A stretch of 64,000 nt of DNA, taken from positions 1,310 through 65,309 of the forward strand of contig CAYXSS010000002.1 in assembly GCA_964467765.1 (NCBI GenBank). Direction: 5' to 3'. The stretch's first letter is position 1. Each line of letters begins with the position of its first letter. Of the stretch, positions 7,801-62,425 are shown piece by piece. The notes under the pieces are model-generated. The model was not told the origin of the DNA and searched no databases. It saw only the letters and a list, made by a program, of their open reading frames with translations. This DNA comes from an uncultured Candidatus Saccharibacteria bacterium. GTDB lineage: Bacteria > Patescibacteriota > Minisyncoccia > UBA6257 > 2-01-FULL-56-20. Position numbers and translations under genes: made by a program.

Positions 7801-10800
7801 GCAGTTCGGCGGTCAGAGATTCGGAGAAATGGAAGTTTGGGCGCTCGAAGGATATGGGGCAAGGCATACATTGCAGGAAATGTTGACGATCAAGTCCGAC
7901 GATGTTTTGGGCCGCGCCGCTGCTTACGAATCGATAATCAGAGGGGAAGAAATTAAAGAGCCGAATTTGCCGGCATCGTTCAATGTGTTGGTCAACGAGC
8001 TCAAGTCACTTGGTTTTAACGTCAAACCGATTTATGCCGACGAAACAAGAAGGAAGGAAGATTTTTCCGCGCTGCAAATTACAGTCGCCTCTCCGGAAGA
8101 CATTTTGAAATGGTCGCATGGCGAAGTTATCAAACCAGAGACAATCAATTATCGAACCCAAAGACCGGAAAAGGACGGTCTTTTCTCGGAGCGTATTTTC
8201 GGTCCGACAAAAGATTATGAATGTTATTGCGGTAAATACAGACGTGTGCGTTATAAGGGCGTTGTTTGCGACAAGTGCGGCGTGGAGGTTACCAAGGCGT
8301 CCGTTCGGCGCGAAAGACTGGGGCATTTGGAGCTTGCCGCACCCGTTTCACATATTTGGTTTTTAAAGAGTGCGCCTTCCCGCTTGAGTTTATCTCTCGA
8401 CGTGTCTGCTCCAAAACTGGAACGCGTAATTTACTATTCCGCCTACATTGTTACCGAGGTTGACGAAGAAGAAAGAGAGAAAGCGCTAAAGGCTTTGGGC
8501 GGAGAACTAAAAAGCAGAATAAAAGAAAGCGGCAAAGGCAAAGGCGTTGAGAAAGAGCTTAAGGAAGCAGCCAAAGTTACCGAGGACTATCTTCAGGATT
8601 TGCGTCTTGGGCAAGTTCTTACAGAAACCGAATACTTTAATTTATCCAGACGTTTCGGCAGTGTTTTTCGCGCCGGAAGCGGAGCGGAAGCCGTCAGGAA
8701 AATTCTCGAGGGGATGGATCTGCGCAAGGAAATTCAAAAAATACAATCAGACCTCGACAAATCAAAAGACCCGCTTGCCCAAAGCAAACTCCTGCGGCGC
8801 CTCAAAATGTTTAAGTCTATGATCAAAAACCAAACGAGGCCGGAGTGGATGATCTTTAATGTTTTACCCGTTCTTCCTCCTGATCTTCGCCCGATGGTGG
8901 CGCTTGACGGCGGCAGGTATGCCACGTCCGACCTCAATGATCTATACCGGCGCGTTATTAACAGAAACAACCGTTTGAAAAAACTTTTGGACATAAAAGC
9001 GCCAGACGTCATTGTTCGCAACGAAAAAAGAATGTTGCAAGAGGCAGTAGACGCCCTAATCGACAATTCGGCAAGGTTTGGCTCGCAACAGCTTTCTTCG
9101 CAGCGCAGGCCGCTCCGATCTCTCGCTCACATGCTTAGAGGGAAACAGGGCCGCTTCAGACAAAATCTTCTCGGCAAGAGAGTGGATTACTCCGGCCGCT
9201 CCGTGATCGTCGTAGGTCCCAAATTAGGGATCGACGAATGCGGGCTGCCGAAGATTATGGCGCTCGAGCTTTTTCGGCCGTATGTCTTGAGCGAGATTAT
9301 CAAAAGAGGATTGGCTTACAACATTCGCGGCGCGGCGCGGTTTATCGAAGAGGGTAGCGACGAAGTCTGGGCAATTTTGGAAGACGTCATTCGCGACAAA
9401 ATGGTGCTCTTGAACCGCGCTCCGACACTGCACCGCTTAAGCGTGCAGGCTTTCAAGCCCCTGCTTACCGAAGGATTGGCGATTCAAATACCGCCGCTGG
9501 TTTGTGTCGCTTTCAATGCCGACTTTGACGGCGACCAAATGGCTGTGCACCTGCCTCTTTCGAATTACGCCCAGAAAGAGGCAAGAGAAATTATGTCTGC
9601 CGGCGGAAATATTTTGAAGCCGGCAACTGGCGAGCTTATAACTACGCCGACGCAAGACGTCGTTTTGGGAATTTATTATTTGACGCAGACGGACGAATCG
9701 AATGTGGAAAGAAACGAAAAAGGTTTGCCGAAAAAAGCGATCGGAGGAATCGAAGAAGCCCTGCTTGCGCATGAGTTCGGATTTATTGGTCTGCGCGAGC
9801 CTGTTTATTGGCAGAGTATGGAGACGACTCTCGGCCGCATGATTTTTAACGAAAATCTCCACGGCCTTCTTCCTTATCAAAACGAAGCTATAAACAAGAA
9901 AAAACTGGTAAAGATCGTAGAAAATATTTTTGACAAATATGGAAAAGAGGAAACAAGAAATATTTTGGATGCCGTAAAACTCTTGGGTTTCGAGATGGCA
10001 ACGCGTTCAGGAATTACATGGGCGATGGCCGACCTTATGGTTCCGAAAGGCAAACGCGCGCTGGTTGAGTCTTCAGAAAAACAAACCGCGGAAATTCAAG
10101 ATCAGTTTAACGAAGGGCTTTTGACTGCTGCCGAGCGGCGCGCCAGAGTGATAAGTGTTTGGGAAAAGGCAAAAGCCGATATTTCCAAACTGGTAGCCGA
10201 GGCTTTAGAAAAAAACAATCCCATTTACCAAATTGTTGATTCTGGTTCGCGCGGTTCTTGGTCCCAGCCGATCCAGATGATGGGTATGAGAGGTTTGGTG
10301 CAAAACCCCAAAGGAGAAATTATCGAATTGCCGATTAAATCATCTCTGAAAGAAGGTTTCAGTGTTTTGGAATATTTCATTTCCACGCACGGTGCGAGAA
10401 AAGGAACGACTGACACCGCTCTTAAAACCGCCCAAGCTGGATATCTGACGCGACGCTTAGTTGACGTATCACAGGATTTAATCATAAGAAGCGAAGACTG
10501 CCGCACAAAAGAAGGAGTAGAAATTTTCCGCAAGGACGGCAAGGAGTTCAACCAATCTTTCTCGAGCCGCCTCTTTTCGCGCACGTCGCTTGAGGATGTG
10601 AGGATACAGAGGAAAATCGTCGTGCGTGCCGGAGAAATTATAGACAAAATCGCAGCGGAGGCGATAGATCGTTCCAATATTGAATCAGCTAAGGTCAGGT
10701 CGCCAATCACCTGTAAGACGGCACACGGCATTTGTTCCAAATGCTACGGTTTCGACCTCGGCAGCAACAGTCCGGTGAAATTTGGCGTGGCCGTGGGCGT

Positions 10801-11656
10801 GCTTGCCGCTCAATCTATCGGTGAACCGGGAACGCAGCTTACAATGCGCACATTCCATGCCGGAGGCGTTGCCGGAGCTGATATTACGCATGGCTTGCCG
10901 CGCGTGGAAGAGCTTTTTGAAGTAAGACCGCCGCGAGGCAGGGCGATTCTTGCTCCTATGGACGGAATAGTAGAAAAAGTGGAAGACAAGGGCATGGCAA
11001 AACTTGTAAGAATATCACAGCCAGGATCAAAAAAGGCGCAAGAATTTTTGATTTCGCGCACAACACTGCTTTTCGTGGAAGTCGGAGCCAAAGTGCAGAA
11101 AGGCGATCAGATTTCTGAAGGACATGTCGATCTCAAGGAACTTTTAGCCATCAAAGGCAAAGAAGAGGTACAGCGCTACATCATCAACGAGGTGCAGAAA
11201 ATTTATTTATCGGAAGGCGCAACGATCAACAATAAACACATCGAGATAATCGTCAGACAGATGTTCTCTCGCGTGCGCGTAAGAGATGCCGGAGACTCCA
11301 CGGATTTTGTTGCCGGAGAAACCGTGGAAAAAGACAGTGTCCTCGAAGCCAACAGGGAACTTAAAAAACAGGGCCTGAAACCGGTCAAAGCAGACGAACT
11401 GCTTTTGGGAATAACGCGAGTCGCGCTTTCTTCCGACAGTTTCCTTTCCGCTGCTTCTTTCCAAGACACGGCGCGTGTTTTGGTTAAATCTGCAGTAGAA
11501 GGCAGAATAGACAGTCTGCGCGGCCTTAAGGAAAACGTGATCATCGGTCGCCTCATCCCGACAAAGGAATTGACAAAAGGTATACCGGAAGACGACGTTG
11601 ACGAAGCCGTAAAAGAGGAGCCGGTTGCCGCTGCTGGCGAACCAGAAGAAAATTAA
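4895..11656 (+). CDS. rpoBC: fused DNA-directed RNA polymerase beta-beta' subunit (RpoB-RpoC in one ORF)
   Basis: RpoB motifs ([37 protein letters not shown]) run straight into RpoC motifs ([39 protein letters not shown]). There is no stop at the junction near 8040. Confidence 0.95.
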
Positions 11657-18954: not shown

Positions 18955-19060
18955 GCGGTTGCCAAAATTGTTGATTTTTTGCGGCTAATGCGGTTGTTGA
19001 CTCTAGCCAGCCGTGTTTTATTATTCTTATAGAAACTTGTTATGCGTTTTGGAGGATTGT

Positions 19061-21118
19061 ATGAGCGAGACGAAAGGGTTCGATCTCGAAAAGGTTATCA
19101 GCGAAGACGCGGAAAGGAAGATAAGAAAACAGAAAACACACAAGGAAATAACGTTTAAAGACTACCTTGCGCTTCTGAAAAACGATCCAAAAATCGCCCA
19201 AAATTCTCCGGCCAGGCTTCTCGAGAAAATCTTGAATTTCGGCAAAGAGCCGGTTCCTGAATCGGAGCAATGGTTTGCGGACGACAACGGTTCGCCGATA
19301 GACATTCGCTACGCCGCTTTTTCCAAGAAGCTTTTCGGGTTGGATAAGCCGATTTATCAGGCAGTGAATTTCTTAAAGGCTGGCGCCAATCGTTTAGAAA
19401 CGGGGAACCAAATTCTTCTTTTGGTCGGTCCTACTGCTGGCGGCAAATCGACGTTCGCAAGAATGTTGAAACAGCTTCTTGAGGATTATTCCCTGCGCCA
19501 GGTTTTCGCCATTAAAGGTTGTCCGATGCACGAAGAGCCTTTGCATATTCTGCCGCGTTACCTGAGAAGTGACTTTGAGCGCGACCTGAAAGTTAGGATA
19601 GACGGCGATCTTTGCCCGCACTGTCGCCACATACTGGATGAAAAATATACCATCAAAGAAGGCGAAGAAAAAGGCAAGGTGCGCTGGTGGGACGTGCCCG
19701 TAGAGACCTTCACTTTTTCCATACAAGGCGCTCGCGGCATTGGATCTTTTGAGCCGTCTGATGAGAAATCCCAGGACGTTACCGAGCTTGTCGGCCGCGA
19801 AAACATTTCGATAAGTTCCACAAAAGGCCCGGATCATCCTCTGGCCTGGTCTCTTTCCGGAGAATTGGAAAAAGCCAACAGAGGAATATGTGAAGGACGC
19901 GAACTTATAAAAGCGGACGAAAAGCTCCTATGGGTATTTATCAGCGTTGCCCAAGAAAAAGAGGTCAAATTGCAAGGGTCCAGCTTCCCGCATCTTTCTG
20001 TCGATACGATTGTTATCGGCCACACGAACCTTACCGAATACAATAAATTTTCTTCGCGCCAGGAAAACGAAGCTTTGCATGATCGCATGTACGTTGTGCA
20101 GTTCCCGTATCCGCTGCGCATGAGCGACGAAGTAAAGATCTACAAAAAGCTTATTGAAGAAGAAAGCGATTTTGTGCATCTCTCGAAGTGCCACATCGCT
20201 CCCGGTTCGCTTGAGCTTGCAGCCCTATTTGCCGTGCTCACGCGGCTTTTGCCTCGGTCTAAGGGCGAAGTGGATATTTTAACTAAAGCAAAGATCTACA
20301 ACGGAGACAGGTTGCTCTTGGAATTCCGCGACAAAGACAAGAAACCGATCGACATCAGGACTCTTGTCGAGGAGGGCCAGGAATCGCCGGATGTTAGCAA
20401 GCGCGAAGGTATGTTTGGCGCAAGCTCGCGCGACATTTTGGCGGCCATCAACATGGAACTTGTGAAAAAAGGCGACGGCTGTCTCACCCCGCTTTCCGTG
20501 ACTCGCGCGTTGCGCGACGTCTTCGAGCATCGCATGGGTTATACGCCGGAAGAGCAGGCGCGCTTCAGAGAAATAATCCAGGAAAGTGTTATGGCGGAGT
20601 ACAAAGAATTTGTTATCGAGTCCGTAAACAAAGCTTTTCTTAGGGCTTATGACGATCTGGCTCGCGAGCTATTTGCGAGATACATTGAGGCAGTCGAGCT
20701 CCACCGCAATCAGAGAAGAAAACTGGTGCGCGGAGGTTTCAAGGTCGAACGCGACGATATTACCCAGAAGCCGAAAGAGCCGGATTTGAAGCTCATGCGC
20801 TCCATCGAAGAACATATCCCGGTCGGTGAATCGGAGGCGGATACCTTCCGCGGCGAAATCTTGGAATACAAATCCCAGATGAAGAGTTTCAATTACGACA
20901 CTTATCAGCCGCTGGCCCGCGCAGTTGAGAAAAAGCTTTTGGCGGACAACAAAACCAGTCTTGGCCTGGTGCTTTCTCAAGACAAGCCAAAGGGCGAAGA
21001 GGAAAAGAAGCGAGCCGACGATCTCTTCGGCGCGCTAACCGACCCCAACGGCGCGCGTTTCTGCCCGGTTTGCGCCAAAGAAGTTGTTGAAAAAGCGAGA
21101 GAATTCCTTAACGCATAA
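19061..21118 (+). CDS. prkA: PrkA-family serine protein kinase (AAA+ plus kinase-like)
   Basis: A Walker A motif (LLLVGPTAGGKSTFARML) and the length of a PrkA/YeaG family member. The start was moved to MSETKG because a GGAGG SD precedes it. Confidence 0.8.
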   Translation: MSETKGFDLEKVISEDAERKIRKQKTHKEITFKDYLALLKNDPKIAQNSPARLLEKILNFGKEPVPESEQWFADDNGSPIDIRYAAFSKKLFGLDKPIYQAVNFLKAGANRLETGNQILLLVGPTAGGKSTFARMLKQLLEDYSLRQVFAIKGCPMHEEPLHILPRYLRSDFERDLKVRIDGDLCPHCRHILDEKYTIKEGEEKGKVRWWDVPVETFTFSIQGARGIGSFEPSDEKSQDVTELVGRENISISSTKGPDHPLAWSLSGELEKANRGICEGRELIKADEKLLWVFISVAQEKEVKLQGSSFPHLSVDTIVIGHTNLTEYNKFSSRQENEALHDRMYVVQFPYPLRMSDEVKIYKKLIEEESDFVHLSKCHIAPGSLELAALFAVLTRLLPRSKGEVDILTKAKIYNGDRLLLEFRDKDKKPIDIRTLVEEGQESPDVSKREGMFGASSRDILAAINMELVKKGDGCLTPLSVTRALRDVFEHRMGYTPEEQARFREIIQESVMAEYKEFVIESVNKAFLRAYDDLARELFARYIEAVELHRNQRRKLVRGGFKVERDDITQKPKEPDLKLMRSIEEHIPVGESEADTFRGEILEYKSQMKSFNYDTYQPLARAVEKKLLADNKTSLGLVLSQDKPKGEEEKKRADDLFGALTDPNGARFCPVCAKEVVEKAREFLNA

Positions 21119-21210
21119 AATTCTTATTGGCAGCCGACGTCATTTTGACGCCGGTTTTTTTTATTGCTAAAATAAAACCAGCGCTTTGGATCTTTAATAA
21201 GGAGATGCAA

Positions 21211-22566
21211 ATGCCGATTGTACAGACTGAACCGACCTCCTATAAGGGAACTGGCGACGCCAAACGGCATCGCGACAAACAAAGAGAAGCTCTGAAGAAA
21301 AAACTTCCGGAAATCATTTCCGAGGAAGCGATTATTACCAAAAAGAAATCGGGAATCGTGAAGGTTCCCATAAAAATGATCGATATTCCTCACTTCCGTC
21401 CGCGGCGCGATTGTCGGGGCGCTGGCGGCGGTCAAGGCCCTTACCAACCAGGCGATATTTTGAAAAGAAAGCCTGGTCAAGGCAACAAGCCTGGCGAAGC
21501 CGGACAAGAGCCCGGCGTAGACTATATTGAAACGGAAATTTCCATAGAGGAATTGATAGAAATGATGCTCGAAGATATCGGTTTGCCGCGGCTCACGGAG
21601 AAAACGCAGAAATCCATACTGGTGGAACTTGGATATCGCGTAGCCGGTCGCCAAAAATCCGGACCATGGCCGCTTCTAGACAAAAAAGCAACCGTGAAAG
21701 AGGGAATAAAAAGATTTTGGTTTTGCCTGCGGGCGGTTCAGACGGAGGCCGACTCCGACGAGCTTGCGGCCTTCGCCGCGCTCAAAGAAACGAACGGCGA
21801 CGTTCAAGCCGCCATAGAATTTTTACGAAGCGGCAAAACTCTTAAACCGTTCGAAAAAATAGAACCATTCCCGATTTTTGCGGCCGACGACATGCGCTTC
21901 CATAAAATTAAAGAAAATATGGAGGAAAGGTCGCGGGCGGTGGTAATAGCAATGATGGATGTTTCCGCATCGATGACTGATGTAAAAAAATATTATGCCC
22001 GCTCGACTATTTTTTGGCTGGTCAGCTTCCTAAGAACCATTTACAAGCAGGTTGAAATCAGGTTTATCGTGCATCATGCTACGGCCAGGATTGTTGACGA
22101 AGAAGAATTTTTCAAGGTCGGCGAGAGCGGCGGGACGCTGTGCCACAGTGCCTACGAACTTGCCGAGAGCTTGATTAAATCTGAATATCCGACGGAAGGC
22201 TGGAACGTTTATGTTTGGCATTTTTCCGACGGCGAAGATTTTAATGCCGATGAGACTTGTAAAGCGGCTGCGAAGTTGATTGATTTGGGAATTAATATGC
22301 TTGGTTATGGCGAGATAAATCCGGAAGAGGAGTGGGGCGTGATGACAGCGGCACTGCCGAACTTTAAGGGGCTTGCCGAATCAGTTCTTTGGAAATACTT
22401 GCGCAGCCATTTTTCTCTGCGCGAATCCAAAGATAGCAACGAAGTCAAACTTATGACCAAAGACAACCTGCCGTTTCTTGCGGTATTTATTTCCGCGCGC
22501 AAGCACATATTTTTGGCGCTTAAGGAATTTCTTCGCAAGGATCGGTGGAAGGAGGTGACACGATGA
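21211..22566 (+). CDS. yeaH: YeaH/YhbH-like DUF444 (vWA-like) protein
   Basis: It lies between prkA and spoVR. A vWA-like MIDAS region is present (VVIAMMDVSASM). The start is the ATG at 21211, 6 nt after AAGGAG. Confidence 0.7.
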   Translation: MPIVQTEPTSYKGTGDAKRHRDKQREALKKKLPEIISEEAIITKKKSGIVKVPIKMIDIPHFRPRRDCRGAGGGQGPYQPGDILKRKPGQGNKPGEAGQEPGVDYIETEISIEELIEMMLEDIGLPRLTEKTQKSILVELGYRVAGRQKSGPWPLLDKKATVKEGIKRFWFCLRAVQTEADSDELAAFAALKETNGDVQAAIEFLRSGKTLKPFEKIEPFPIFAADDMRFHKIKENMEERSRAVVIAMMDVSASMTDVKKYYARSTIFWLVSFLRTIYKQVEIRFIVHHATARIVDEEEFFKVGESGGTLCHSAYELAESLIKSEYPTEGWNVYVWHFSDGEDFNADETCKAAAKLIDLGINMLGYGEINPEEEWGVMTAALPNFKGLAESVLWKYLRSHFSLRESKDSNEVKLMTKDNLPFLAVFISARKHIFLALKEFLRKDRWKEVTR

Positions 22567-24077
22567 AAAAAACAGACATCGCCCGTTTGTCCAAAATAGA
22601 AGACCGCATACGCCGTATTGCCGAGGATAACGGCCTTCTGACCACAGACATCCTTTTTGAGGTCGTTCCGGCAAGGAAAATGCTTGAATCCATGGCCTAC
22701 ATGTTTCCGACGAATTTTTCCCATTGGTCTTTCGGCAGGGATTACGAAAAATATAGGACGATTTACGAATATACCGGATCGGGAATTCCCTACGAACAAG
22801 TTTGGAATTTCGATAAGCCGCGCGCTTTGATTGTCGAAACAAACCCCGTTGCTCTCAACATCATGGTCATCGCGCATGTTTTCGGGCACGTAGATTTTTT
22901 CTTGGCAAACGGTTTTTTACGCCGTGGCAGGGAAGTTGCCGATATTGCCGAAGAGGCGAGAAATGCGGCAAATCGCTTTGCCGCCTACGAAGAACGATTC
23001 GGCAAACAGGATGTGGAGCGGGTTATGGATGCCGCCATGTCGATCATGTGGCACGAAAACCCCGATCCGTTTTTCGATGAACCTGAAGAAGAAGAATTAC
23101 GCGAGCGCCTAATAGAGATCGAGAGGGCGAAGCTGGAACGGACCCGCAGTCTCAAGTCCGAATTCAGCAAGCCCGAAAGTAGAGAAGAAACAGCGGCCAT
23201 CGAAGAAAAGCTTGCGGAGCTTATGAAAAAGACTCCACCGGAGCCGACACACGACCTTTTGCTTTATATTTCGCGCCGATCGCCTAAACCATTGAAGCCT
23301 TGGATGGCGGATGTTATAAGCGTGATTCGCCGCCAAGCGAGAGCTTTGTCTCCCAACAGGCGCACGAAGATGCTTAATGAGGGCTGGGCCACATATTGGC
23401 ACGTAAAAATCATGCGGCAGCTTTTTCAGGAAGGACTTTTGACGGCGGAAGAGCACGGCGTTTTTAACGAGTTTCACTCCGCAGTTACGCGGCAAAATAG
23501 AATGTCTCTTAACTGGTACGGAGTGGGATTGGCTCTTTTGAACGAGATAGAGGACAGATGGAACAAGGGGCGCTTTGGCGGGGATTATGAAAAATGCAAC
23601 GATGCCTACAAACTGGCCGATTGGGATACGGGCGCAATGTTGGGCAAGAAAAAACTTTTCGAAATAAGGTCCGCGTATAGCGACAGAATGGCCGTAGAGG
23701 AATTTTTCACCGACGAATTTATCCGCGACCAAGAACTTTACCTTTATACCGAAAGCGTGAATCCTCAAGACGGTTCCGTGGAATACGTCGTCGACGAAGA
23801 CGATCCGGAAATAATCAGGCGCAGACTGAAATCGCTTTTCACCCTTTACGGAACGCCGTTGATTACGGTTGAGGACGGAGATTGTGACGGAGCAAAAGAG
23901 TTGTACCTTAAACACCGTTTTTCCGGCTATGAGCTGGATCCGCACTACAGAAACGGCACATTGCGTAAAATTTATGATCTATGGGGCAAACCCGTGCATC
24001 TTGAAGCAGCACACGATGGAAAACTGAAACTATTCACTTTTGATGGCAAGGGCTTCAGCGAATCCATCATGCTCTAA
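22563..24077 (+). CDS. spoVR: SpoVR/YcgB family protein
   Basis: SpoVR motifs (AYMFPTNFSHWSFGRDYE, MVIAHVFGHVDFF). The start overlaps the yeaH stop as ATGA. Confidence 0.85.
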   Translation: MKKTDIARLSKIEDRIRRIAEDNGLLTTDILFEVVPARKMLESMAYMFPTNFSHWSFGRDYEKYRTIYEYTGSGIPYEQVWNFDKPRALIVETNPVALNIMVIAHVFGHVDFFLANGFLRRGREVADIAEEARNAANRFAAYEERFGKQDVERVMDAAMSIMWHENPDPFFDEPEEEELRERLIEIERAKLERTRSLKSEFSKPESREETAAIEEKLAELMKKTPPEPTHDLLLYISRRSPKPLKPWMADVISVIRRQARALSPNRRTKMLNEGWATYWHVKIMRQLFQEGLLTAEEHGVFNEFHSAVTRQNRMSLNWYGVGLALLNEIEDRWNKGRFGGDYEKCNDAYKLADWDTGAMLGKKKLFEIRSAYSDRMAVEEFFTDEFIRDQELYLYTESVNPQDGSVEYVVDEDDPEIIRRRLKSLFTLYGTPLITVEDGDCDGAKELYLKHRFSGYELDPHYRNGTLRKIYDLWGKPVHLEAAHDGKLKLFTFDGKGFSESIML

Positions 24078-28753: not shown

Positions 28754-31693
28754 ATGAAGTACGATCCTAAGAAAATCGAATCGAAGTGGCAAAAGAAGTG
28801 GCTGGAAGAAAAAGTTTTTCGCGCCAGTGACCCGTTCGACTACACCCAGGGCAAGCCGCAGAAACAAAAATATTATCAGCTGGAAACATTTCCTTATCCT
28901 TCGGCTGCTGGTTTGCATGTCGGCCATCCCAAGGGCTACATCGCCGAAGATATCCACGCCCGCTTTATGCGCATGAACGGGCGCGAGGTTCTCTATACAA
29001 TGGGCTGGGATGCTTTTGGATTGCCGACGGAAAATTACGCGATCAAAGTCGGCAAATCGCCGCAGGAAGTCGCGGCGGAGAACATTAAAAACTTCAAGCG
29101 GCAGGTACGGATGTTCGGCCTCTCTTATGACTGGGATCGGGAAATCAACACTTCGAGCCCGGATTATTATAAGTGGACACAGTGGATTTTTATAAAGCTA
29201 TGGGAGAGGGGATTGGCTTACAGGAAAAAGGCGCCCGTCAATTGGTGCCCGCAAGACCAAACCGTTTTGGCGAACGAGCAGGTGATAAATGGCAAGTGCG
29301 AGAGGTGCGGGGCGGAAATAGAGCAGAGAGAAATGGAGCAGTGGTTTTTTCGCATCACCGATTACGCGGAAAGACTACTTGCCGATTTACGCGATCTTGA
29401 TTGGCCGGCGGCGACGATAAAGCGCCAGGAGGATTGGATAGGAAAATCGGAAGGAGCAGAGCTTGATTTTGAAATCAAAACGGACGAGCCGCCGAATTTC
29501 GTTTTGCTTCATGGCTACAAAGGTTCGCCGGAGAAAAATTTTTTCCCTTGGCTGAAAAAGGAATTGGAAAATCGGGGTTATAAAGTCCAGGTGCCGGCAT
29601 TACCAAATCCTAAAAACCCCAGTGTTTACGATCAGGTTGATTATGTTATAAAAACAGTTTCTTTTGATGACAACACCGTTATTGTGGGGCATAGTTTGGG
29701 TTCGGTGGTTGCTTTAAAAGTTCTTGAGAGAATAAATCAGCCAGCCAGAAAAACCGTTTTAATTGGCGGATTTACGGAAAATAATTTCGTAGACAATGAT
29801 AATTTCGAACCGAATATCTTCGACTGGAAATTCGATGTTAAAAAAATTAGCAAAAACGCCGGTTTTCTTTTGTCGATGAGAGACCTTACGGATGACGCGG
29901 TCCCACAATATCAACCCTTAAAACTTTCCGAAACTTTTGGTGGCCAATTGGTAGATTTTAAAGCCATAAAACCTCACGCTAGAAATACGAATGAGCCCGA
30001 AGTTCTTCGCCGGGCGTTGGATATTATAACCGTTTTTACAACCCGTCCCGACACGCTTTTCGGCGCGACTTATATGGTTTTGGCACCGGAGCATCCGCTT
30101 GTTGAAAATTTGAAATCGAAAATTGAAAATTGGCCGGAAGCAAAAAAATATATCGAGCAAGCTAAACGCAAAACGGAACTGCAGAGGCGTGAGGAAGTAA
30201 AAAATAAAACCGGCATAGAGCTCGCGGGCATAAAAGCGATGAATCCGGCAACCAAAGAAGAAACACCCGTTTGGGTCGCCGACTACGTTTTGATGGGTTA
30301 CGGCACGGGAGCGATTATGGCGGTGCCAGCGCATGACGAGCGCGACTATGAATTCGCCAAAAAATTTGAGCTACCTGTTCGACGCGTGGTTCATGGAGTC
30401 GGCGGCGGCATTGTTTATGTTGGTGTAGGGAAAATGGTTAACTCTGGCAAGTTCGACGGTATGGATTCGGAAAAAGCGAAATGGGAAATCACTAAATATG
30501 TTGGCGGCGAAAGGAAAATCCAATACAAACTGCGCGACTGGTCGGTTTCTCGACAGCGCTATTGGGGCTGTCCCATACCGATGATTTACTGCGAGACATG
30601 CGGCATTGTTCCGGTGCCGGAGAAAGATTTGCCTGTAAAATTGCCGTCCCTTGAAGACTATCGGCCCAAAGGAATTCCGCCGCTTGCCGCTTCGGAAAAA
30701 TTTATAAACGTGAAATGCCCGAAATGCGGCGGCGAGGCCAGGCGAGACCCGGAAACACTCGACACTTTCGTAGATTCGTCCTGGTATTTTTTGCGCTACA
30801 CCGATCCGCATAACGAAAAAGAGCCGTTCGATAAGAAAAAAGCTGCGCACTGGCTCCCAGTCGATCTTTATGTGATTGGCGCGGAACATACGACGGCGCA
30901 CCTGCTCTATGCACGGTTTATCACTAAGTTTATGAGAGATGCAGGCCATCTTCGGTTCGGTGAGCCGTTTTTGAGATTAAGACACCAGGGACTGATTTTA
31001 GGGGAAGACGGACAGAAAATGTCCAAAAGCAAGGGAAATGTGGTAAACCCTGACGATCTGATAAACGAATTCGGAGCGGACACGGTGCGAGTCTACGAGA
31101 TGTTTATGGGCCCCTTTGAGCAAGGCCAGCCGTGGGACCCTAGGGGAGTTTTGGGCGCCAACAGATTTTTGAACCGCGTTTGGAATTATTTCGCCGCAGG
31201 CAATTTTTCCGTAAGCGAAGAATCGCCAAAAACGACCAAACATATAATTCACAAGACGATAAAAAAAGTCAGCGAAGACATTGCCGGATTCAGTTTCAAT
31301 ACTGCAATTTCGGCTTTGATGGTTATGTTAAACGATCTTGAAAAATCTGGAGAAAAAATTTCCAAAAGCGACGCGGAAACGGCGCTTAAAATGATCCATC
31401 CTTTCGCCCCACACATCTCACAGGAACTTTGGTCGCGGCTTGAAAACGATAGCTACTTGGATTTCGAGCCGTGGCCCGAACATAATGAAGATCTTGCGCG
31501 CGAAGAAAAAATCACGGTTGTTATACAGATCAACGGAAAAGTGCGAGACAGTTTCGAGGCCGCAAATGGTCTTGCCGAAAAAGACGCGCGCGAGCGCGCC
31601 CTTAAAAGCGAAAAAGTGCGAAAATATCTGGGAAACAGCAATCCCAGGAAATTTATTTACGTACAGGATAAAATAATAAATATAGTGATTTAA
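28754..31693 (+). CDS. leuS: leucyl-tRNA synthetase with an inserted alpha/beta-hydrolase (YdeN/RBBP9-like) domain
   Basis: HIGH (HVGHPKGY), the KMSKS region (KMSKSKGN) and the editing-domain motifs (TTRPDTLFGATY, GTGAIMAVPAHDERDYEFA). An extra domain of about 185 aa with GHSLGS is encoded at 29471-30028. Confidence 0.9.
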   Translation: MKYDPKKIESKWQKKWLEEKVFRASDPFDYTQGKPQKQKYYQLETFPYPSAAGLHVGHPKGYIAEDIHARFMRMNGREVLYTMGWDAFGLPTENYAIKVGKSPQEVAAENIKNFKRQVRMFGLSYDWDREINTSSPDYYKWTQWIFIKLWERGLAYRKKAPVNWCPQDQTVLANEQVINGKCERCGAEIEQREMEQWFFRITDYAERLLADLRDLDWPAATIKRQEDWIGKSEGAELDFEIKTDEPPNFVLLHGYKGSPEKNFFPWLKKELENRGYKVQVPALPNPKNPSVYDQVDYVIKTVSFDDNTVIVGHSLGSVVALKVLERINQPARKTVLIGGFTENNFVDNDNFEPNIFDWKFDVKKISKNAGFLLSMRDLTDDAVPQYQPLKLSETFGGQLVDFKAIKPHARNTNEPEVLRRALDIITVFTTRPDTLFGATYMVLAPEHPLVENLKSKIENWPEAKKYIEQAKRKTELQRREEVKNKTGIELAGIKAMNPATKEETPVWVADYVLMGYGTGAIMAVPAHDERDYEFAKKFELPVRRVVHGVGGGIVYVGVGKMVNSGKFDGMDSEKAKWEITKYVGGERKIQYKLRDWSVSRQRYWGCPIPMIYCETCGIVPVPEKDLPVKLPSLEDYRPKGIPPLAASEKFINVKCPKCGGEARRDPETLDTFVDSSWYFLRYTDPHNEKEPFDKKKAAHWLPVDLYVIGAEHTTAHLLYARFITKFMRDAGHLRFGEPFLRLRHQGLILGEDGQKMSKSKGNVVNPDDLINEFGADTVRVYEMFMGPFEQGQPWDPRGVLGANRFLNRVWNYFAAGNFSVSEESPKTTKHIIHKTIKKVSEDIAGFSFNTAISALMVMLNDLEKSGEKISKSDAETALKMIHPFAPHISQELWSRLENDSYLDFEPWPEHNEDLAREEKITVVIQINGKVRDSFEAANGLAEKDARERALKSEKVRKYLGNSNPRKFIYVQDKIINIVI

Positions 31694-34011: not shown

Positions 34012-34100
34012 GCGGTGGGTGGAGGATTCGAACCTCCGAGGGGATTTCTCCCCAACCGCATTTCGAGTGCGGCGCGTTAGACCACTCTGCCAACCCACCG
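34012..34100 (-). tRNA. tRNA-Ser (anticodon CGA)
   Basis: The reverse complement folds as a class II tRNA. The acceptor is CGGTGGG, the anticodon stem is CCGCA/TGCGG with loop CTCGAAA, the extra arm is long, and the T-arm is GGAGGTTCGAATCCTCC. Confidence 0.75.
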
Positions 34101-34569: not shown

Positions 34570-34604
34570 GCCTCGGCGAACGCCGAGGCTTTCAAATTAT
34601 TTTG
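34570..34604. terminator. bidirectional rho-independent terminator
   Basis: A 9-bp stem (gcctcggcg/cgccgaggc) is flanked by an A-run and a T-run. It sits between convergent genes. Confidence 0.55.
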
Positions 34605-36379
34605 TTATCAATTTCTTTCCTAATCCTCTCTATAGTTTTTTCCAGCTTTATTTCTCCTTCCTGCCCGCGGCGGTAGTTCCGGACGTTAACCGTTCCATTT
34701 TTCTCTTCCTGTTCGCCAACCACTAAAACATAGGGAATCTTCGTAATCTCGGCGTCGCGGATGCGTTTGCCAACGGTTAGGTTTTCGTCGCTTAGTTCGG
34801 CCCGGATGCCGGCTTCCCGCAAAACACGATAAATTTTTTCCGCGTATTTTCTCTGCGACGCGCCTACGTTTATTATTTCCGCTTGCACCGGTGAAAGCCA
34901 CAAAGGTAGCCGCCCTTCGAAATGTTCCAAGATGATGCCGATGAAGCGCTCGAATGTTCCGAGTATTGCCCGATGGATCATAACCGGTCGTTCCTTGCTG
35001 CCCTTGTCGCTCACATAAAAAAGACCGAATCTTTCCGGATTGTTGAAATCGAGCTGAATTGTGGCGACGGTCCATTCGCGGCCGAGAGAATCTTTGGTGT
35101 TGATATCTATTTTCGGTCCGTAAAACGCGCCATCTTTCGGCTTCGTTGCGTATTTGATGCCGGAGTTTTTGAGTACGTGTTCGAGCGCTGCCTCGGCTTT
35201 CTGCCAGAGTTCGGGATCTCCCATTGATTTATCCGGCTTTGTGGCGAGATTGAACGAAAGCGGCAAGTCGAAAGTTTTATACACCTCTTTGACAAGCTCG
35301 ATCAGATTTTTGACTTCATCCTCGATTTGGTCCGGGCGGCAATAAATATGGGCATCGTCTTGGCTCATTTGGCGCACGCGGAAAAGGCCGCCGAGCGTTC
35401 CCGAAAGTTCGTTCCGGTGCAGGCGGTCGGTAATTTCCGAGAGTCGCAGAGGCAGGTCGCGCCACGATCTCACGCGGAATTTATAAATATAGGTGCTCTC
35501 CGGGCAGTTCATCGGTTTCAGAACATAAACTTCTTTCTGTTCTCCCGGCGGGGAGAAATAAAACATATTTTCGCGGTAGTTGGCGAAGTGACCCGATTTT
35601 TCAAAAACTCCTTTTTTGACCATTACCGGCGTCGACACTTCTTCATATCCCTCGCGATCCAATTTTTCGCGCATTAATTTTTCAAGCTCCCGCCAGATGA
35701 TCATTCCTTTTCCGTGCCAAAAAGCCGCGCCGGGAGCCATGTCTTCAAAATGGAAAAGATCCAGCCGTTCGCCCAATTTCCTGTGGTCGCGCTTTTCCGC
35801 TTCGGCGCGCATTTTGATAAACTCATCCAGTTCTTTTTTGCCCGCGAAAGCCAGGCCGTAAATCCTTTGCAGCTGCGGATTTTTTTCGTCGCCGCGCCAG
35901 TATGCCGCAGCCAACCTATCGAGCTTGAAGCTGCCCCCCGGAATTTCCGAAGTGTTTTTTACGTGTCCGCCTCGGCACAAATCGAAAAATGCTTCGCCGG
36001 TATAATAGGCGGTCAATTGTTTCTTCTCGCCGACGAATTCTTTTATCAGATCCAGCTTGAACGGCTGCTCGGAGAAAAGTTTTTTTGCCGCCGCCGCCGT
36101 CAACTTTTTTCCGGAGAAAGGCAGTTTTTGCGCGATAAGCTCGCGCATCGTTTTCTCGAACTCCAACAAATCCTCCGGCGTAAGCGAGCGCGGCAAAAGG
36201 AAGTCATAATAAAATCCGTTCTCGATCGTCGGTCCGATGCCGAGTTTTGCATCGGGAAATTTTTTAAGCACGGCGGCGGCCAAAAGATGCGCCAGCGAGT
36301 GACGGACGTTTTCTATGGACTTCGAGGATTTTTTGCCGGACATATGAGTTATTATATGGCCGGCCGAGCGGTTTGACAA
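34592..36379 (-). CDS. thrS: threonyl-tRNA synthetase (N-terminally short form)
   Basis: Class II aaRS core and an anticodon-binding domain. The N-terminus (HSLAHLLAAAV) starts near the second additional domain and there is no TGS domain. The ORF begins at a TTG, and an ATG 12 codons in (at 36343) could be the real start. Confidence 0.85.
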   Translation of the reverse strand: MSNRSAGHIITHMSGKKSSKSIENVRHSLAHLLAAAVLKKFPDAKLGIGPTIENGFYYDFLLPRSLTPEDLLEFEKTMRELIAQKLPFSGKKLTAAAAKKLFSEQPFKLDLIKEFVGEKKQLTAYYTGEAFFDLCRGGHVKNTSEIPGGSFKLDRLAAAYWRGDEKNPQLQRIYGLAFAGKKELDEFIKMRAEAEKRDHRKLGERLDLFHFEDMAPGAAFWHGKGMIIWRELEKLMREKLDREGYEEVSTPVMVKKGVFEKSGHFANYRENMFYFSPPGEQKEVYVLKPMNCPESTYIYKFRVRSWRDLPLRLSEITDRLHRNELSGTLGGLFRVRQMSQDDAHIYCRPDQIEDEVKNLIELVKEVYKTFDLPLSFNLATKPDKSMGDPELWQKAEAALEHVLKNSGIKYATKPKDGAFYGPKIDINTKDSLGREWTVATIQLDFNNPERFGLFYVSDKGSKERPVMIHRAILGTFERFIGIILEHFEGRLPLWLSPVQAEIINVGASQRKYAEKIYRVLREAGIRAELSDENLTVGKRIRDAEITKIPYVLVVGEQEEKNGTVNVRNYRRGQEGEIKLEKTIERIRKEIDNKII

Positions 36380-36455
36380 ATAATTTTATATATACTATTA
36401 TGTGATTAGCGCGGGAGAAATCCCGCGACTTTGAAAAGAAAGGTAGGAACTGTCC

Positions 36456-50772: not shown

Positions 50773-50820
50773 GTTACGATGTAGGTAGAATTTTACAATC
50801 TTGTTTTGCTGGAGGAGAAA

Positions 50821-53760
50821 ATGTCGACGGAGCAGAAATTCTCCGCTGAGCAGGTGGAAAGAATAAAGAAACTTTTCGAGGAATCCCAGGAGGATACGAA
50901 CAAGTTCCGCGAGCTTGTTGAAGCGGACGAAGAACTGAAATCTTTTTCGTGGGAAGACGTGAGAACCAAGGCCGAAAACCTCCGCTTATTGAAGCGGTTG
51001 GCGAAGCTTTATAAGGAACTGGAAGAAAAACTGGCCAAGCGCGTTGCCGAAAAGGCATTAATCGAAGTCGGCGCGGAAAAACTTTTCGAGGAGTTCTGCA
51101 AAGAAGTTCCGGACAAAGAAGAGCCGCCAAGCTTCTTAAGAGATCTCGAGGTTTTTGTTGCCAAGGCGGAAGAAGTTGTCTGGACGAAAGAAACTCTTGA
51201 GGCCCTGGAGCAGGCCATGCGCCACGGCTTACCCGCCGAAACTTTTATTAAATACCACTCGCATATCCCGCAGAAATTCGTGGAAGAGAAAATGAGAAAA
51301 CTTCGCGGCATAAGCAGGGTTCAGAAATCAGCCGAATTCATCAGGGGCATAGGCAGAATTACCGATGTCAGCAAGATAGATTCCAAAAGCGTGATTCACT
51401 TCAAAAAGACCTCACGCAGGCGTCCTTACGAAACGGGCATCAAGCAATTGCGCTGGACCGCAAGCGTCATCAACGGCGCAAACATCGGCATCAAACACTC
51501 GCCGCTTATCGAGGAAAACCCCGTGCGTTGCGCGCTGGCCAATGCCCGCCGCAACGGAGATTCGCTCGTTATTCTTACCAACCTCATCGATCTCGACCTC
51601 AAGAAGGCCGGCGGTACGCCACAGGTGTATCGTTCGCAGATTTCCGGTTACAACACCAATGTGGAAATTCTTTCTCCCGAATACCAGCAGCGCGCCAAGG
51701 CCGTTCTAAGCGGCGAAGAAGAAGGATTGATTTATGAAAATCTCGCCGAGAAATTTTTAAACATTCTTTCCGGCTGGGAAAAGATTTTTATGCGTCCCGA
51801 CGGCAAACCTGAATTTACAGGAATCGTTTTGGGACTTCTCGGTCCGAAAGAGGACGAGTTCATCAAGACCGGCACCTATTGGGAGCTGCATCGTCTGACG
51901 ATACAGAGACAGAAGAAGCTGGACGTGGAAATTTCCATGGCCAAACACCAGCTTAAAGAAGCAATGGAATACGGCGCACCGGAAGAAGAGATCGAAGATC
52001 TTCAAAAAAACCTTGACAGGCTTATTGCCGAGAGAGACAAGACGCGCGTTTCTTTCCACCGGCCGGAGGATCTGCAGGATTACGAACGGCGAGTCCGCAC
52101 TTTCGTCGTCAAGATGCTCGAAGAAAAAATTCCCGGTCTCAAGATCATCGCCCAAAGAAAGGCTTATGTGAAAATCGGCGAGGAGACCGTGCTTTTCGAA
52201 ATACCGTTTAACATGGATGCCACCGACGGTTTGCTGGCCAATTTCTGCAACCACTACGGTCCGCGAGTTCTTCGCGGCGAGGTTCCAAAAACAGTTGTTA
52301 TTTGCCAGGCGCATTCGCCCAACTTCCGCATGACCGTTCGCGAAGTCGATGGCGGCGGCAGGCGCGGCGATGCAAGGATCTATGTTGCCCCGATTGCCAT
52401 TGATCAGAAATTTTTGCAATCCGAGTTGAATCAGGAAGCCAAGCCGGTCCATCAGCTCGAGAAAGCCATTTGGATGGGGCAATTCGAAGCAGGAGTTTTG
52501 CGTCTCAATTGCGCAAACGGCGTAGTCAATCCCGATCCCATGTCCGTTGCCGATCTGGTAAAAATGGAAGTCGGCTATGGCACCTACTTGGAAAATCTAG
52601 AAAAATGCCGCTATATCTGGACCTATCTGCCATCCGACCCTCACTGGGGCTGGGGCTGGAAAGAATTTGTTCACGATCCGGATAGCGGGCGCGAGCTCGG
52701 TATGTGCGAGGCAGCAATTGAGATGATGCGCCGCGCCGGGATTTGCGAGGAAGGGAAATTGCCGATACATTTTTTTGCCATTTGCGACGATCCGACGCAA
52801 GGCAACCACTTCCAGACGCAGCAGCAGCCACATCAGCACAAAATGCCGTTTCACAGAATCGAAGAGAGATGGCTTGCGGCCTTGCGAGCCGCCAAAGAAG
52901 GCGATGCGGAAAAGAGGCTCGAAATCTTGAGGGAAATGAAGCGCCTCAATCTGTACCAATTCGGCGTTCGCGGCGAACACTGGACGCAAGACCAGCTGGA
53001 GCAGGTTATCGAGCGTCACCTTGAGCCGAATACAGACTTTTTCCTTGCTTTGCTCGCAAGCGCCAAGAGGGCCGGACTTGTTCTGCGGCCCGTGAGCGAC
53101 TTTACCGACACCGACCATTTTCCGCCCGGTACTCCGGATAAAAGGGATATCGGCATCGTCAATTTCTCTACCGGAAATCACTTTGCCGCCACCGTCAACA
53201 AGGAAATTATGGAAGGCGCGATTTATGCCAAGATGCTGCGGCTCATGCTTCGCGCCCATCCCGACTGGAAAGACAAAAACGAACTGCTGGAAAAACTTGT
53301 CACTGCGCCCACTTACGGCAACATCACCGTTGGCTGGGGTACGATTTCCGTCCCTGGCGGCTACGAGTGGGGTATCGAAGTGCGCAATAAACCGCCGCGC
53401 CTCTCAAGTTGGGGAGACACGCTCCTTGGAGCGGTTCGCAACGACGAGCAGCGTGGCAACTACTCGCGCATTTTCGACAAGCGCATGACTCTCAAATGCT
53501 ATGGCGACAAGCATTTCTTCGGCGCCGTACGCACCGGACACACTTTTTATTTTATGGCCGCGCCCGGAGTGCCAACCGAGGTTTACGGCGAACTTGGTTT
53601 TCCGCCGAATAATACCGGCGTCTCATTTGTCGGTCTGCCAGCGGGCGGTCCTACGAGCGGTCCGATCCTCGTCCGCACGCTGACATTCAGTCAGATTCGC
53701 GACTACTTCAAGAAGCCGTACAAGTTCGACTGGGAAGCTTTTCTCCCCGATCCGGCATAA
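50821..53760 (+). CDS. large (about 980 aa) uncharacterised protein
   Basis: An SD (GGAGGAG) before the ATG. The N-terminus is Glu/Lys-rich and predicted helical. No recognised catalytic motifs were found. Confidence 0.55.
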   Translation: MSTEQKFSAEQVERIKKLFEESQEDTNKFRELVEADEELKSFSWEDVRTKAENLRLLKRLAKLYKELEEKLAKRVAEKALIEVGAEKLFEEFCKEVPDKEEPPSFLRDLEVFVAKAEEVVWTKETLEALEQAMRHGLPAETFIKYHSHIPQKFVEEKMRKLRGISRVQKSAEFIRGIGRITDVSKIDSKSVIHFKKTSRRRPYETGIKQLRWTASVINGANIGIKHSPLIEENPVRCALANARRNGDSLVILTNLIDLDLKKAGGTPQVYRSQISGYNTNVEILSPEYQQRAKAVLSGEEEGLIYENLAEKFLNILSGWEKIFMRPDGKPEFTGIVLGLLGPKEDEFIKTGTYWELHRLTIQRQKKLDVEISMAKHQLKEAMEYGAPEEEIEDLQKNLDRLIAERDKTRVSFHRPEDLQDYERRVRTFVVKMLEEKIPGLKIIAQRKAYVKIGEETVLFEIPFNMDATDGLLANFCNHYGPRVLRGEVPKTVVICQAHSPNFRMTVREVDGGGRRGDARIYVAPIAIDQKFLQSELNQEAKPVHQLEKAIWMGQFEAGVLRLNCANGVVNPDPMSVADLVKMEVGYGTYLENLEKCRYIWTYLPSDPHWGWGWKEFVHDPDSGRELGMCEAAIEMMRRAGICEEGKLPIHFFAICDDPTQGNHFQTQQQPHQHKMPFHRIEERWLAALRAAKEGDAEKRLEILREMKRLNLYQFGVRGEHWTQDQLEQVIERHLEPNTDFFLALLASAKRAGLVLRPVSDFTDTDHFPPGTPDKRDIGIVNFSTGNHFAATVNKEIMEGAIYAKMLRLMLRAHPDWKDKNELLEKLVTAPTYGNITVGWGTISVPGGYEWGIEVRNKPPRLSSWGDTLLGAVRNDEQRGNYSRIFDKRMTLKCYGDKHFFGAVRTGHTFYFMAAPGVPTEVYGELGFPPNNTGVSFVGLPAGGPTSGPILVRTLTFSQIRDYFKKPYKFDWEAFLPDPA

Positions 53761-57997: not shown

Positions 57998-58648
57998 ATG
58001 GGCGAAAAACTACAAACCAACAAACAGCTTATCAAATTTTTGGTCGACGAAGGATATCTGAAATCGCGGCGCATAATCGATGCGTTTGAAAAAATTGATC
58101 GCGGAGATTTCGTTCCGGATAAATATATAAGCGAGGCGTACGCGAATTATCCTTTGCCTATCGGGCACGGCCAGACGATTTCCCAGCCCCTAACCGTGGC
58201 TTTTATGCTTGAACTTTTGGATCCGCGTCCGGAAGAAAAAATTTTGGAAATTGGCGCGGGTTCCGGCTGGCAAGCGGCGCTTCTTGCCCAAATTACTGGT
58301 CCCGAAGGGTTGGTGGTTGCCATCGAAAGGATTCCGGAGCTTGTCGAATCCGCAAAGGAAAACGTTCATAAATACGGTTTTCTAAGCGATGGCAGATTGA
58401 AGATTTTTAGAGCTGACGGTTCGAGGAGCGCTCCGCCGAAAGTTTTTCCGCAAGGCGGATTCGACAAGATTGTCGCCGCCGCGGCCGGAGATGAAATACC
58501 TAAAGCGTGGAAGGATGAATTAAAGATCGGCGGAAAAATTATAGCGCCGGTTTTAAACAGTATCGTCGTTTTGGAAAAGATTTCGGAAGAAAATTTTAAG
58601 AAAACGGAATACCCCGGATTCAGTTTTGTGCCCTTGATTAAGGGGTAA
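57998..58648 (+). CDS. pcm: protein-L-isoaspartate O-methyltransferase
   Basis: PIMT motifs (ISQPLTVAFMLELL, EIGAGSGWQAALLA). Confidence 0.85.
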   Translation: MGEKLQTNKQLIKFLVDEGYLKSRRIIDAFEKIDRGDFVPDKYISEAYANYPLPIGHGQTISQPLTVAFMLELLDPRPEEKILEIGAGSGWQAALLAQITGPEGLVVAIERIPELVESAKENVHKYGFLSDGRLKIFRADGSRSAPPKVFPQGGFDKIVAAAAGDEIPKAWKDELKIGGKIIAPVLNSIVVLEKISEENFKKTEYPGFSFVPLIKG

Positions 58649-58748
58649 ATCTTCACGACTTCCGTCTTCGGCAGCCGAATTTGACCCCCCAGGGAATAAA
58701 GAGTATTCTGCTTTTAGAACGCTTGAAACCCTATCAAGGGGGCAAGTT

Positions 58749-62334: not shown

Positions 62335-62425
62335 CAACCCAGAAGTATTTTATGAAAGAATGATTGTTCTAAAATAGCACCGATCCTGTGTTTCGGCTTC
62401 AAATGGTTTGCCGAGGATTAGAGTT

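Follow-up and report, generated by a model that had tools for sequence, protein, structure and literature searches.

In a 64-kb window (the whole 64,000-nucleotide stretch analyzed here, positions 1,310 to 65,309 of contig CAYXSS010000002.1 in assembly GCA_964467765.1, from an uncultured Candidatus Saccharibacteria bacterium), we identified a gene for a bacterial-type leucyl-tRNA synthetase (LeuS, also LeuRS) whose reading frame contains 181 additional residues. Profile matches, sequence alignments and predicted structures indicate that these residues are a complete, self-folding serine hydrolase domain of the YdeN/RBBP9 family. A sequence-only reading of this DNA had proposed an in-frame YdeN/RBBP9-like hydrolase in LeuS between the strand carrying WIGxSEG and the TTRPDT motif, and the Pfam family PF06821, phmmer and Foldseek agree on this identification. 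The gene and its features are listed below in window coordinates; conservation in LeuS refers to an alignment of 47 homologues with and without the insert, and conservation in the hydrolase to 28 LeuS-embedded copies.

28754–31693, plus strand: leuS, 979 amino acids (aa) plus stop, bacterial-type, host of the nested domain (open reading frame (ORF) list, TIGR00396 and AlphaFold2 model)
28916–28927, plus strand: HVGH, the HIGH signature, aa 55–58; H55 and G57 invariant and H58 at least 90% conserved in the 47 LeuS
29444–29482, plus strand: outgoing strand of the host beta-hairpin and first CP1 strand, aa 231–243, ending in SEGAELDFEIKT (DSSP strand at 231–242)
29483–30025, plus strand: nested YdeN/RBBP9-family serine hydrolase domain, aa 244–424 (181 aa), as placed by PF06821, phmmer, Foldseek and alignments
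29510–29515, plus strand: His253-Gly254, the 'HG' motif of the oxyanion hole, next after hydrolase strand one; H in 28 and G in 27 of the 28 copies
29687–29701, plus strand: nucleophile elbow GHSLG, aa 312–316; the Ser314 codon is 29693–29695 and aligns with RBBP9 Ser75
29891–29893, plus strand: Asp380, predicted triad acid (...RDLTDDAVP), kept in all 28 copies and aligned with RBBP9 Asp138
29975–29977, plus strand: His408, predicted triad histidine (...IKPHAR), kept in all 28 copies and aligned with RBBP9 His165
30026–30055, plus strand: return strand of the hairpin and threonine-rich editing motif, aa 425–434, IITVFTTRPDT (strand at 424–429)
30056–30499, plus strand: rest of the CP1 editing domain, holding GTGAIMAVPAHDERD at 30302–30346
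31016–31030, plus strand: KMSKS loop, aa 755–759; M756, S757 and K758 invariant, K755 and S759 at least 90% conserved in the 47 LeuS

Identity of the nested hydrolase

Both Pfam families relevant to the proposed fold exceed their cut-offs on the insert, a check that the earlier reading had proposed. PF06821 (Ser_hydrolase) scored 32.8 bits on the insert alone and 28.9 bits in the whole protein (aa 250–341), against a cut-off of 22, and Abhydrolase_1 scored 28.7 bits on the insert against a cut-off of 25.8. Searched with phmmer against PDB sequences, the insert matched Bacillus subtilis YdeN (1uxo) with an E value of 4.6e-13 over query positions 11–134, and human RBBP9 with an E value of 2e-7 over query positions 21–173, a span that includes the Ser, Asp and His. 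The AlphaFold2 model of the domain alone, built from a 19-sequence alignment, has a predicted local distance difference test (pLDDT) score of 91.5 and a predicted template modeling (pTM) score of 0.90. Foldseek superimposed this model on YdeN 1uxo over 188 columns with a root-mean-square deviation (rmsd) of 2.4 Å (template modeling (TM) scores by query and target, TMq and TMt, 0.83 and 0.83), and on RBBP9 (7oex, 2qs9) with TM scores of 0.80–0.84; TMt values for other, larger alpha/beta hydrolases were about 0.45–0.6. The insert matched none of the known editing or deacylase folds (CP1, YbaK/INS, AlaX/tRNA_SAD and DTD) in Pfam, NCBIfam or Foldseek, which returned alpha/beta hydrolases only.

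We predict that Ser314, Asp380 and His408 form the catalytic triad. The triad suggested earlier around the GHSLGS serine stands in so far as Ser, Asp and His align with their RBBP9 counterparts (Asp138 being numbered by our own count along the RBBP9 sequence) and are conserved; its geometry is taken from homology. In the model Ser314 lies after the strand at 308–313 and before the helix at 315–326. It is conserved in 27 of the 28 LeuS that carry the insert at the same site, across which the identity of the insert to that of the window falls from 76% to 38%. His408 is the sole fully invariant column in a wider 28-sequence alignment of the domain. The HG motif is invariant once stand-alone homologues are added, and the triad and HG residues together are invariant or nearly so when free-standing copies and copies from other hosts are included. 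The conservation of the catalytic residues despite this deep divergence suggests selection on catalysis, and the nested hydrolase is apparently still active. The subfamily also has motifs of its own, LPNxxxPxxxEQ, FDWKFDFxKIK and HxxxxxEP.

RBBP9, the only family member with a defined activity, is a serine aminopeptidase that takes the first amino acid, preferably an aromatic one, off the N terminus of its substrate and depends on a free alpha-amine (PMC8866121). The glutamate that anchors the amine in RBBP9, Glu108, has no clearly conserved match in the nested copies; D347 is present in 20 and D349 in 6 of the 28, in a loop whose alignment is uncertain.

Insertion point and boundaries

We set the boundaries of the insert by alignment to Thermus thermophilus LeuRS and to insert-free relatives. 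In the phmmer alignment with 1h3n, the host sequence ...GAELDFEIKT (to aa 243) pairs with residues 229–238 and IITVFTTRPDT (from aa 425) with residues 243–252, and the 181 residues stand for a turn of 4–5 residues (T. thermophilus 239–242) in a surface beta-hairpin that makes up strands one and two of the CP1 editing domain, just upstream of TTRPDT. Relatives lacking the insert read ...GAEIEFRIK-NLESR-IKVFTTRPDT at this hairpin. At the first junction ...EIKT is followed by DEPPNF..., and at the second ...RRALDI is followed by ITVFTT.... In the full-length AlphaFold2 model the insert has a beta-alpha-beta pattern with pLDDT block means of 80–94, and its flanks are the strands at 231–242 and 424–429.

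The sequence-only reading had put the insert at 29471–30028 (aa 240–425). The place is correct, and the limits are refined here to aa 244–424, nucleotides 29483–30025. The strings it quoted, FVLLHGYKGSPEKNFFPWL, GHSLGS (aa 312–317), VLIGGF, TTRPDT, GTGAIMAVPAHD (aa 517–528) and KMSKS, are all present. Its statement that the flanking LeuS motifs stay in frame also holds, but the wording of two of them does not, as the protein has WIGKSEG rather than WIGRSEG and HVGH rather than HIGH.

An intein or other spliced element was considered and ruled out. A Pfam scan with E values up to 1 found no Hint or intein family, there is no Cys or Ser at the start of the insert and no His-Asn plus Cys, Ser or Thr at its end, and the insert is an entire hydrolase. 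Since the insert makes up the whole alpha/beta-hydrolase fold, first strand through last helix, it must remain in the mature protein. The earlier suggestion of an 'intein-free domain acquisition' agrees with the lack of Hint or intein families and of splice-junction residues. A repeat search over 29300–30200 for mobile-element footprints gave only short repeats at chance level, none of them flanking the insert, and we found neither target-site duplications nor mobile-element genes at the insert boundaries.

The host synthetase

The host protein scored 977.6 bits on the NCBIfam equivalog hidden Markov model TIGR00396 (leuS_bact; cut-off 548.4). The match is split in two, broken at aa ~243–423 and restarting at aa 423 with profile position 238. 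Pfam identified the class I catalytic domain, the editing domain PF13603 (197 bits, aa 424–582) and the anticodon-binding domain. The full-length AlphaFold2 model, built from the 47-sequence alignment, has a mean pLDDT of 89.3 and a pTM of 0.80, and Foldseek matched it to the LeuRS of T. thermophilus (2bte; E value 6e-81, TMt 0.81) and Escherichia coli (4aq7; TMt 0.85).

Within TTRPDT (aa 429–434), T429, T430, R431, D433 and T434 are invariant in the 47 LeuS, as are G517, G519, A520, D528, R530 and D531 in GTGAIMAVPAHDERD (aa 517–531). Judged by their residues, the synthetic and CP1-editing motifs of this LeuRS are all intact. We considered whether the hydrolase compensates for a degenerate CP1 editing site, and this was ruled out: the editing residues do not vary, whether a LeuS bears the hydrolase or has no insert, and thus there is no editing deficit for the hydrolase to make good.

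The gene is preceded by a TatD-like gene and followed by a hypothetical gene and then a gene for an HtrA-type protease. The same order of TatD, LeuS and HtrA-type protease (one to three genes downstream) is found around the hydrolase-bearing LeuS of three relatives, which indicates that leuS here is the orthologous, presumably sole, LeuS. An assembly chimera or frameshift artifact was ruled out by an identical protein on a 77-kb NCBI contig (P0006), by the conserved synteny, and by more than 35 independent LeuS clusters from NCBI, JGI, ENA and Logan with the same architecture.

Guest domains in related LeuS

A search with full-length LeuS returned the identical protein P0006 and thousands of other LeuS. 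Among the 120 closest, for which the named matches are Patescibacteria, Paceibacterota and Liptonbacteria, we mapped inserts against an insert-free reference (P0034) and by Pfam architecture. Site 1, the hairpin before TTRPDT, holds the hydrolase in 37 LeuS, a Ham1/ITPase domain in 10, an ASCH domain in one and a PD-(D/E)XK domain in one. Site 2, inside the editing domain, holds a NUDIX domain of ~144 aa in about 50, and 41 of the 120 have no insert at all. At a third site the hydrolase lies between positions ~192 and 193 of the C-terminal part of LeuS (P0143, P0188, P0187, P0178 and P0213). In the window, sites 2 and 3 are empty:

30389–30412, plus strand: empty site 2, aa ~546–553, a short Gly/Val-rich loop in the window LeuS
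30590–30604, plus strand: empty site 3, the CETCG turn of a hairpin with strands at 610–613 and 617–620 in the AlphaFold2 model

The closest relatives (P0007, P0008, P0009; L001 3001–6609) have both the hydrolase and the NUDIX domain. The NUDIX domain may have been lost from site 2 in the window LeuS or gained in these relatives.

At least three LeuRS loops take guests, which comprise serine hydrolase, NUDIX, Ham1/ITPase, GNAT, ASCH and PD-(D/E)XK domains. The site-1 hairpin and two other loops of LeuS are insertion hot spots for unrelated small enzymes in Patescibacteria. Core identities of the related LeuS to that of the window are all ~65–75%, and in a neighbor-joining tree of the core (no support values) the architectures are interleaved, with several hydrolase-bearing LeuS adjoining insert-free ones. 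The earlier reading had allowed that the segment might prove to be a normal insertion of the lineage lacking a GxSxG triad. The insert is indeed typical of the lineage, being found in dozens of Patescibacteria LeuS clusters, but the GxSxG triad architecture is present, and the finding of a hydrolase is therefore not refuted.

In two LeuS with Ham1 at site 1 (P0071 and P0062), the nested Ham1/ITPase starts with its own Met (…KMDLVFATN…), and it looks as if an entire gene, including its start codon, had been inserted in frame. We also observed that public annotation pipelines give some of these full-length LeuS (P0087, P0084, P0094, P0033 and others) the names 'alpha/beta fold hydrolase', 'non-canonical purine NTP pyrophosphatase' or 'class I tRNA ligase family protein'. 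Through such misnaming, genomes may appear to be without LeuS.

The hydrolase in other hosts and as a free-standing protein

A phmmer search of 1.84 billion cluster representatives identified 1834 relatives of the hydrolase domain, 561 of them at E values of 1e-10 or below. The best 150 of the 1834 comprise 32 LeuS with the hydrolase at site 1, some with an adjacent NUDIX or GNAT domain; about 10 LeuS with it at site 3, a CxxC hairpin turn that corresponds to window aa 613–617; 80 free-standing proteins of ~180 aa whose ends match the insert boundaries; and 23 other, longer proteins. By Pfam scan, the other hosts with a nested copy are ValS, AlaS, SecA, TsaD, Fmt, Der/EngA and UvrA (representative-library proteins P0160, P0179, P0158, P0174, P0220, P0259 and P0190). 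Terminal fusions join the hydrolase to inositol monophosphatase, riboflavin kinase, ACT, Smr and, twice, NUDIX. In P0002, a free-standing homologue (46% identity) from a Pacearchaeota archaeon, both the start and the end lie no more than a few residues from those of the insert, and the matches listed by a domain-profile search are almost all stand-alone proteins, mostly from DPANN archaea. Inserts of this hydrolase are thus found in other genomes as well, and in proteins other than LeuS. The lineage nests small, putatively 'house-cleaning' enzymes inside essential proteins, and the LeuS hydrolase is one case of this.

Nested and free copies are interleaved in a neighbor-joining tree of the domain (no support values), and LeuS site-1 copies fall into several groups, which suggests repeated insertion or cassette replacement. 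Two free-standing proteins (P0215 and P0266) consist of a serine hydrolase and a NUDIX domain, a pair that also co-occurs in LeuS. The occurrence of this pairing in LeuS and in free proteins hints at a functional link. The copies hosted by UvrA (P0190) and Fmt (P0220) have Trp at a Gly that is conserved in the family, for example HSLWWV for HSLGGV, suggesting that they come from genomes in which UGA encodes Gly (code 25, Gracilibacteria/Absconditabacteria) and that the wrong translation table was applied to them.

The base composition of the insert was compared with that of its host. GC content at third codon positions (GC3) is 0.398 in the insert and 0.538 in the rest of LeuS, and only 0.9% of equal-sized windows (181 codons) in the long ORFs of the 64 kb have a GC3 that low. 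Insert and host values agree in three relatives (0.50/0.53, 0.38/0.42 and 0.70/0.70). Comparison of identities with related LeuS revealed no donor for the insert closer than the vertical relatives. The low GC3 could possibly reflect exchange of the cassette from a relative of lower GC content.

Function of the nested hydrolase

We propose, with a probability of roughly 55%, that the insert is an active, self-contained hydrolase module that rides as a passenger on LeuRS, in a loop that tolerates insertion. The hydrolase would work as an autonomous module tethered to LeuRS and would be produced 1:1 with an essential, constitutively expressed protein, while LeuRS would go on charging and proofreading tRNA-Leu normally. 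Its position would reflect structural permissiveness (the tip of a hairpin and a guest that folds by itself) rather than coupling to the editing site, because the same hairpin hosts unrelated enzymes and because the same hydrolase occurs at a distant LeuS hairpin and in proteins as unlike as SecA and UvrA. The guest is probably a working enzyme, since its triad is conserved. Most likely it would hydrolyze a small ester or amide, which might be an aminoacyl compound, and would serve house-cleaning or salvage. The companions NUDIX, Ham1/ITPase and GNAT and the free hydrolase–NUDIX fusions point to such small-molecule chemistry, and the removal of an amino acid with a free alpha-amine by RBBP9 points to an ester or amide, possibly aminoacyl, substrate. 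The added editing or deacylase function considered in the sequence-only reading is less likely and gains no support from the comparative data, as the same hairpin hosts unrelated domains, the same hydrolase occurs elsewhere and the CP1 residues are invariant.

Several points weigh against the passenger module as we describe it. PF06821 aligns only to profile positions 2–92 of 172, and the second half of the domain was assigned from PDB sequence and fold matches. Only five residues separate the insertion point from TTRPDT downstream of it, and the hydrolase may thus be coupled to editing. The 'house-cleaning' label would derive from the identity of the neighboring domains, and the neighbor-joining trees carry no support values. 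Among the hosts, LeuS, ValS, AlaS and Fmt have aminoacyl-tRNA or aminoacyl-adenylate as ligands, and TsaD works through an adenylate intermediate; such hosts could point to a shared substrate over mere permissiveness.

In the main alternative, the hydrolase would act in cis and cleave an aminoacyl ester or anhydride that LeuRS makes or binds. Candidate substrates would be mis-acylated tRNA-Leu, released non-cognate aminoacyl-AMP, or inhibitors that mimic aminoacyl-adenylates, and the domain would serve as an extra proofreading or self-protection module beside the editing site. Its closeness to TTRPDT is consistent with such a role, and so is the behavior of RBBP9, which forms an aminoacyl-enzyme and requires a free alpha-amine, the chemistry for cleaving an aminoacyl ester or amide (PMC8866121). 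Hosts that handle aminoacyl-tRNA or adenylates are over-represented, with the hydrolase also in ValS, AlaS, Fmt and TsaD. The GNAT and NUDIX domains that co-occur in LeuS have activities that could be directed at the amine or the nucleotide moiety of such compounds, and NCBIfam holds a family of IleS with GNAT (NF040702). We nevertheless regard a cis-acting aminoacyl hydrolase as unlikely. The hairpin that would place it beside the editing site holds Ham1, ASCH or PD-(D/E)XK in sister LeuS, and the same hydrolase is found both at site 3 of LeuS and in three proteins unrelated to aminoacyl compounds, SecA, UvrA and Der. Its presence is patchy, given the 41 of 120 close LeuS that have no insert; the invariant CP1 editing residues leave nothing to compensate; and the counterpart of RBBP9 Glu108 is not clearly conserved.

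More speculative is a broader proposal, which we consider improbable, that a portable module has repeatedly colonized loops of essential nucleotide- and aminoacyl-handling proteins in ultra-small bacteria and that in LeuS, ValS and AlaS, together with NUDIX and GNAT, it cleaves aminoacyl-nucleotides on site. If this were true, the targets would be escaped non-cognate aminoacyl-adenylates or antibiotics that mimic aminoacyl-adenylates, and the module would represent a new, target-tethered form of proofreading or self-immunity unlike every known editing domain.

It is just as doubtful that the insert is a self-propagating or ratchet-trapped passenger, that is, an insertion-prone cassette that lands widely, survives in permissive loops of essential proteins and cannot be removed by imprecise deletion, while being of little or no use to its host protein or to the cell. 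The large number of unrelated hosts and the three or more sites in LeuS are what such a cassette would produce, as are the polyphyletic LeuS site-1 copies interleaved with free ones and the patchy distribution among LeuS of 65–75% core identity. The low GC3 of the insert (0.398 versus 0.538) is compatible with exchange from a donor of lower GC, and nested Ham1 copies keep their initial Met. A pure passenger, however, has no need of the selection on activity indicated by catalytic residues conserved over deep divergence, and this conservation makes the ratchet less likely. The boundaries lack repeats, target-site duplications and mobile-element genes, transposition or homing machinery is not evident, and the equality of insert and host GC3 in three relatives indicates long residence.

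A non-catalytic role, as a binding or scaffold surface (for tRNA, a partner protein or a membrane) or as a ligand sensor whose triad serves ligand binding, is very improbable. In its favor, the first description of RBBP9 was as a factor that binds protein (background in PMC8866121), and some copies have Gly or Asp for the serine (P0024, P0135) or Glu or Phe at the acid column. The conserved catalytic residues make this role less likely, with Ser in 27 of 28, His in 28 of 28 and the HG oxyanion motif kept in the site-1 copies. Free-standing homologues with the same motifs are common, and the alignments show no extra surface motif that separates nested from free copies.

Other features of the window

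Upstream of leuS, rpoB and rpoC form a single ORF of 2253 aa at 4895–11656 on the plus strand, with Rpb2 domains at aa 28–1051 and Rpb1 from aa 1062. On this evidence, the RNA polymerase subunits beta and beta' are fused in this genome. Genes for a PrkA-type AAA protein kinase (19007–21115) and a SpoVR-like protein (22524–24074) flank a 484-aa ORF (21112–22563), all on the plus strand; the region 19007–24074 looks like a yeaG/yeaH/ycgB-type cluster, which is unexpected beside a Patescibacteria-like LeuS. About 2.3 kb downstream of LeuS, tRNA-Ser(CGA) (34012–34099, minus strand) adjoins the ThrS gene (34595–36385, minus strand, 597 aa), and tRNA-Gly(CCC) is located at 62264–62335. No tRNA-Leu was found in the 64-kb window. 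Two plus-strand ORFs, at 50785–53757 (991 aa) and 58638–61001 (788 aa), have no Pfam match at E values of 1e-5 or below.

Comparison with known systems

Bacterial aminoacyl-tRNA synthetases are usually seen as architecturally fixed, and extra catalytic domains as a eukaryotic speciality. The LeuRS described here, from a candidate-phyla-radiation-type bacterium, carries a second, apparently active enzyme in its proofreading domain, and this arrangement is systematic in Patescibacteria. Copies of a single hydrolase subfamily lie nested within eight or more different essential proteins, and together the guests provide a natural map, of use in protein engineering, of where LeuRS and other core proteins tolerate insertions. 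The finding bears on how genome-reduced symbionts package accessory enzymes, and it leads to a hypothesis open to testing, that a synthetase may have a new activity attached to it that serves quality control or detoxifies inhibitors.

As a kind of feature, accessory enzyme domains or nested domains in synthetases are already known, because databases hold such domain matches as automatic annotation and NCBIfam holds a family of IleS with GNAT. Hydrolase-, NUDIX- or Ham1-bearing LeuRS, or nested domains in Patescibacteria synthetases, are not described in the literature searched, outside of which most subscription journals lie. The specific architecture, the hot-spot behavior and the spread of one hydrolase subfamily across several hosts appear to be new.

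The insert shares with YdeN (1uxo), RBBP9 (2qs9, 7oex) and PF06821 the same minimal alpha/beta-hydrolase fold of ~180 aa, which has no lid domain (rmsd 2.4–2.7 Å). YdeN and RBBP9 have the GHSxG elbow, Asp and His at the positions aligned with the insert. They differ in being free-standing whereas the insert is nested in another enzyme, and identity is only 20–24%. The host likewise has the fold, domain order and HIGH, KMSKS, CP1 threonine-rich and GTG...D..D motifs of T. thermophilus (1h3n/2bte) and E. coli (4aq7) LeuRS. Among the 50 best fold matches, no LeuRS chain is longer than ~880 residues, and roughly one-quarter of the query model has no counterpart in any of them (TMq at most 0.75).

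The NCBIfam family NF040702, 'isoleucine--tRNA ligase, N-acetyltransferase domain-containing', is a curated case of a bacterial class Ia synthetase with an unrelated small enzyme domain. It differs in its host, IleS, and in its guest, GNAT, and the window LeuS is not a member, as it scores 76.8 bits against a cut-off of 1999. Inteins are also in-frame, self-folding inserts in conserved essential proteins, but differ in having a Hint domain and splice-junction residues. Classic intein hosts include synthetases, SecA and UvrA and overlap with the hosts of the hydrolase.

The CP1, ZN1 and leucine-specific domains are insertions of class Ia synthetases nested in the Rossmann fold. These insertions are ancient, near-universal and coupled to tRNA charging. 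As in the present case, a whole domain sits in a loop of its host and enters and leaves through a pair of antiparallel strands. The hydrolase, in contrast, is a second-order nesting inside CP1 itself, patchy in its distribution and interchangeable with unrelated domains.

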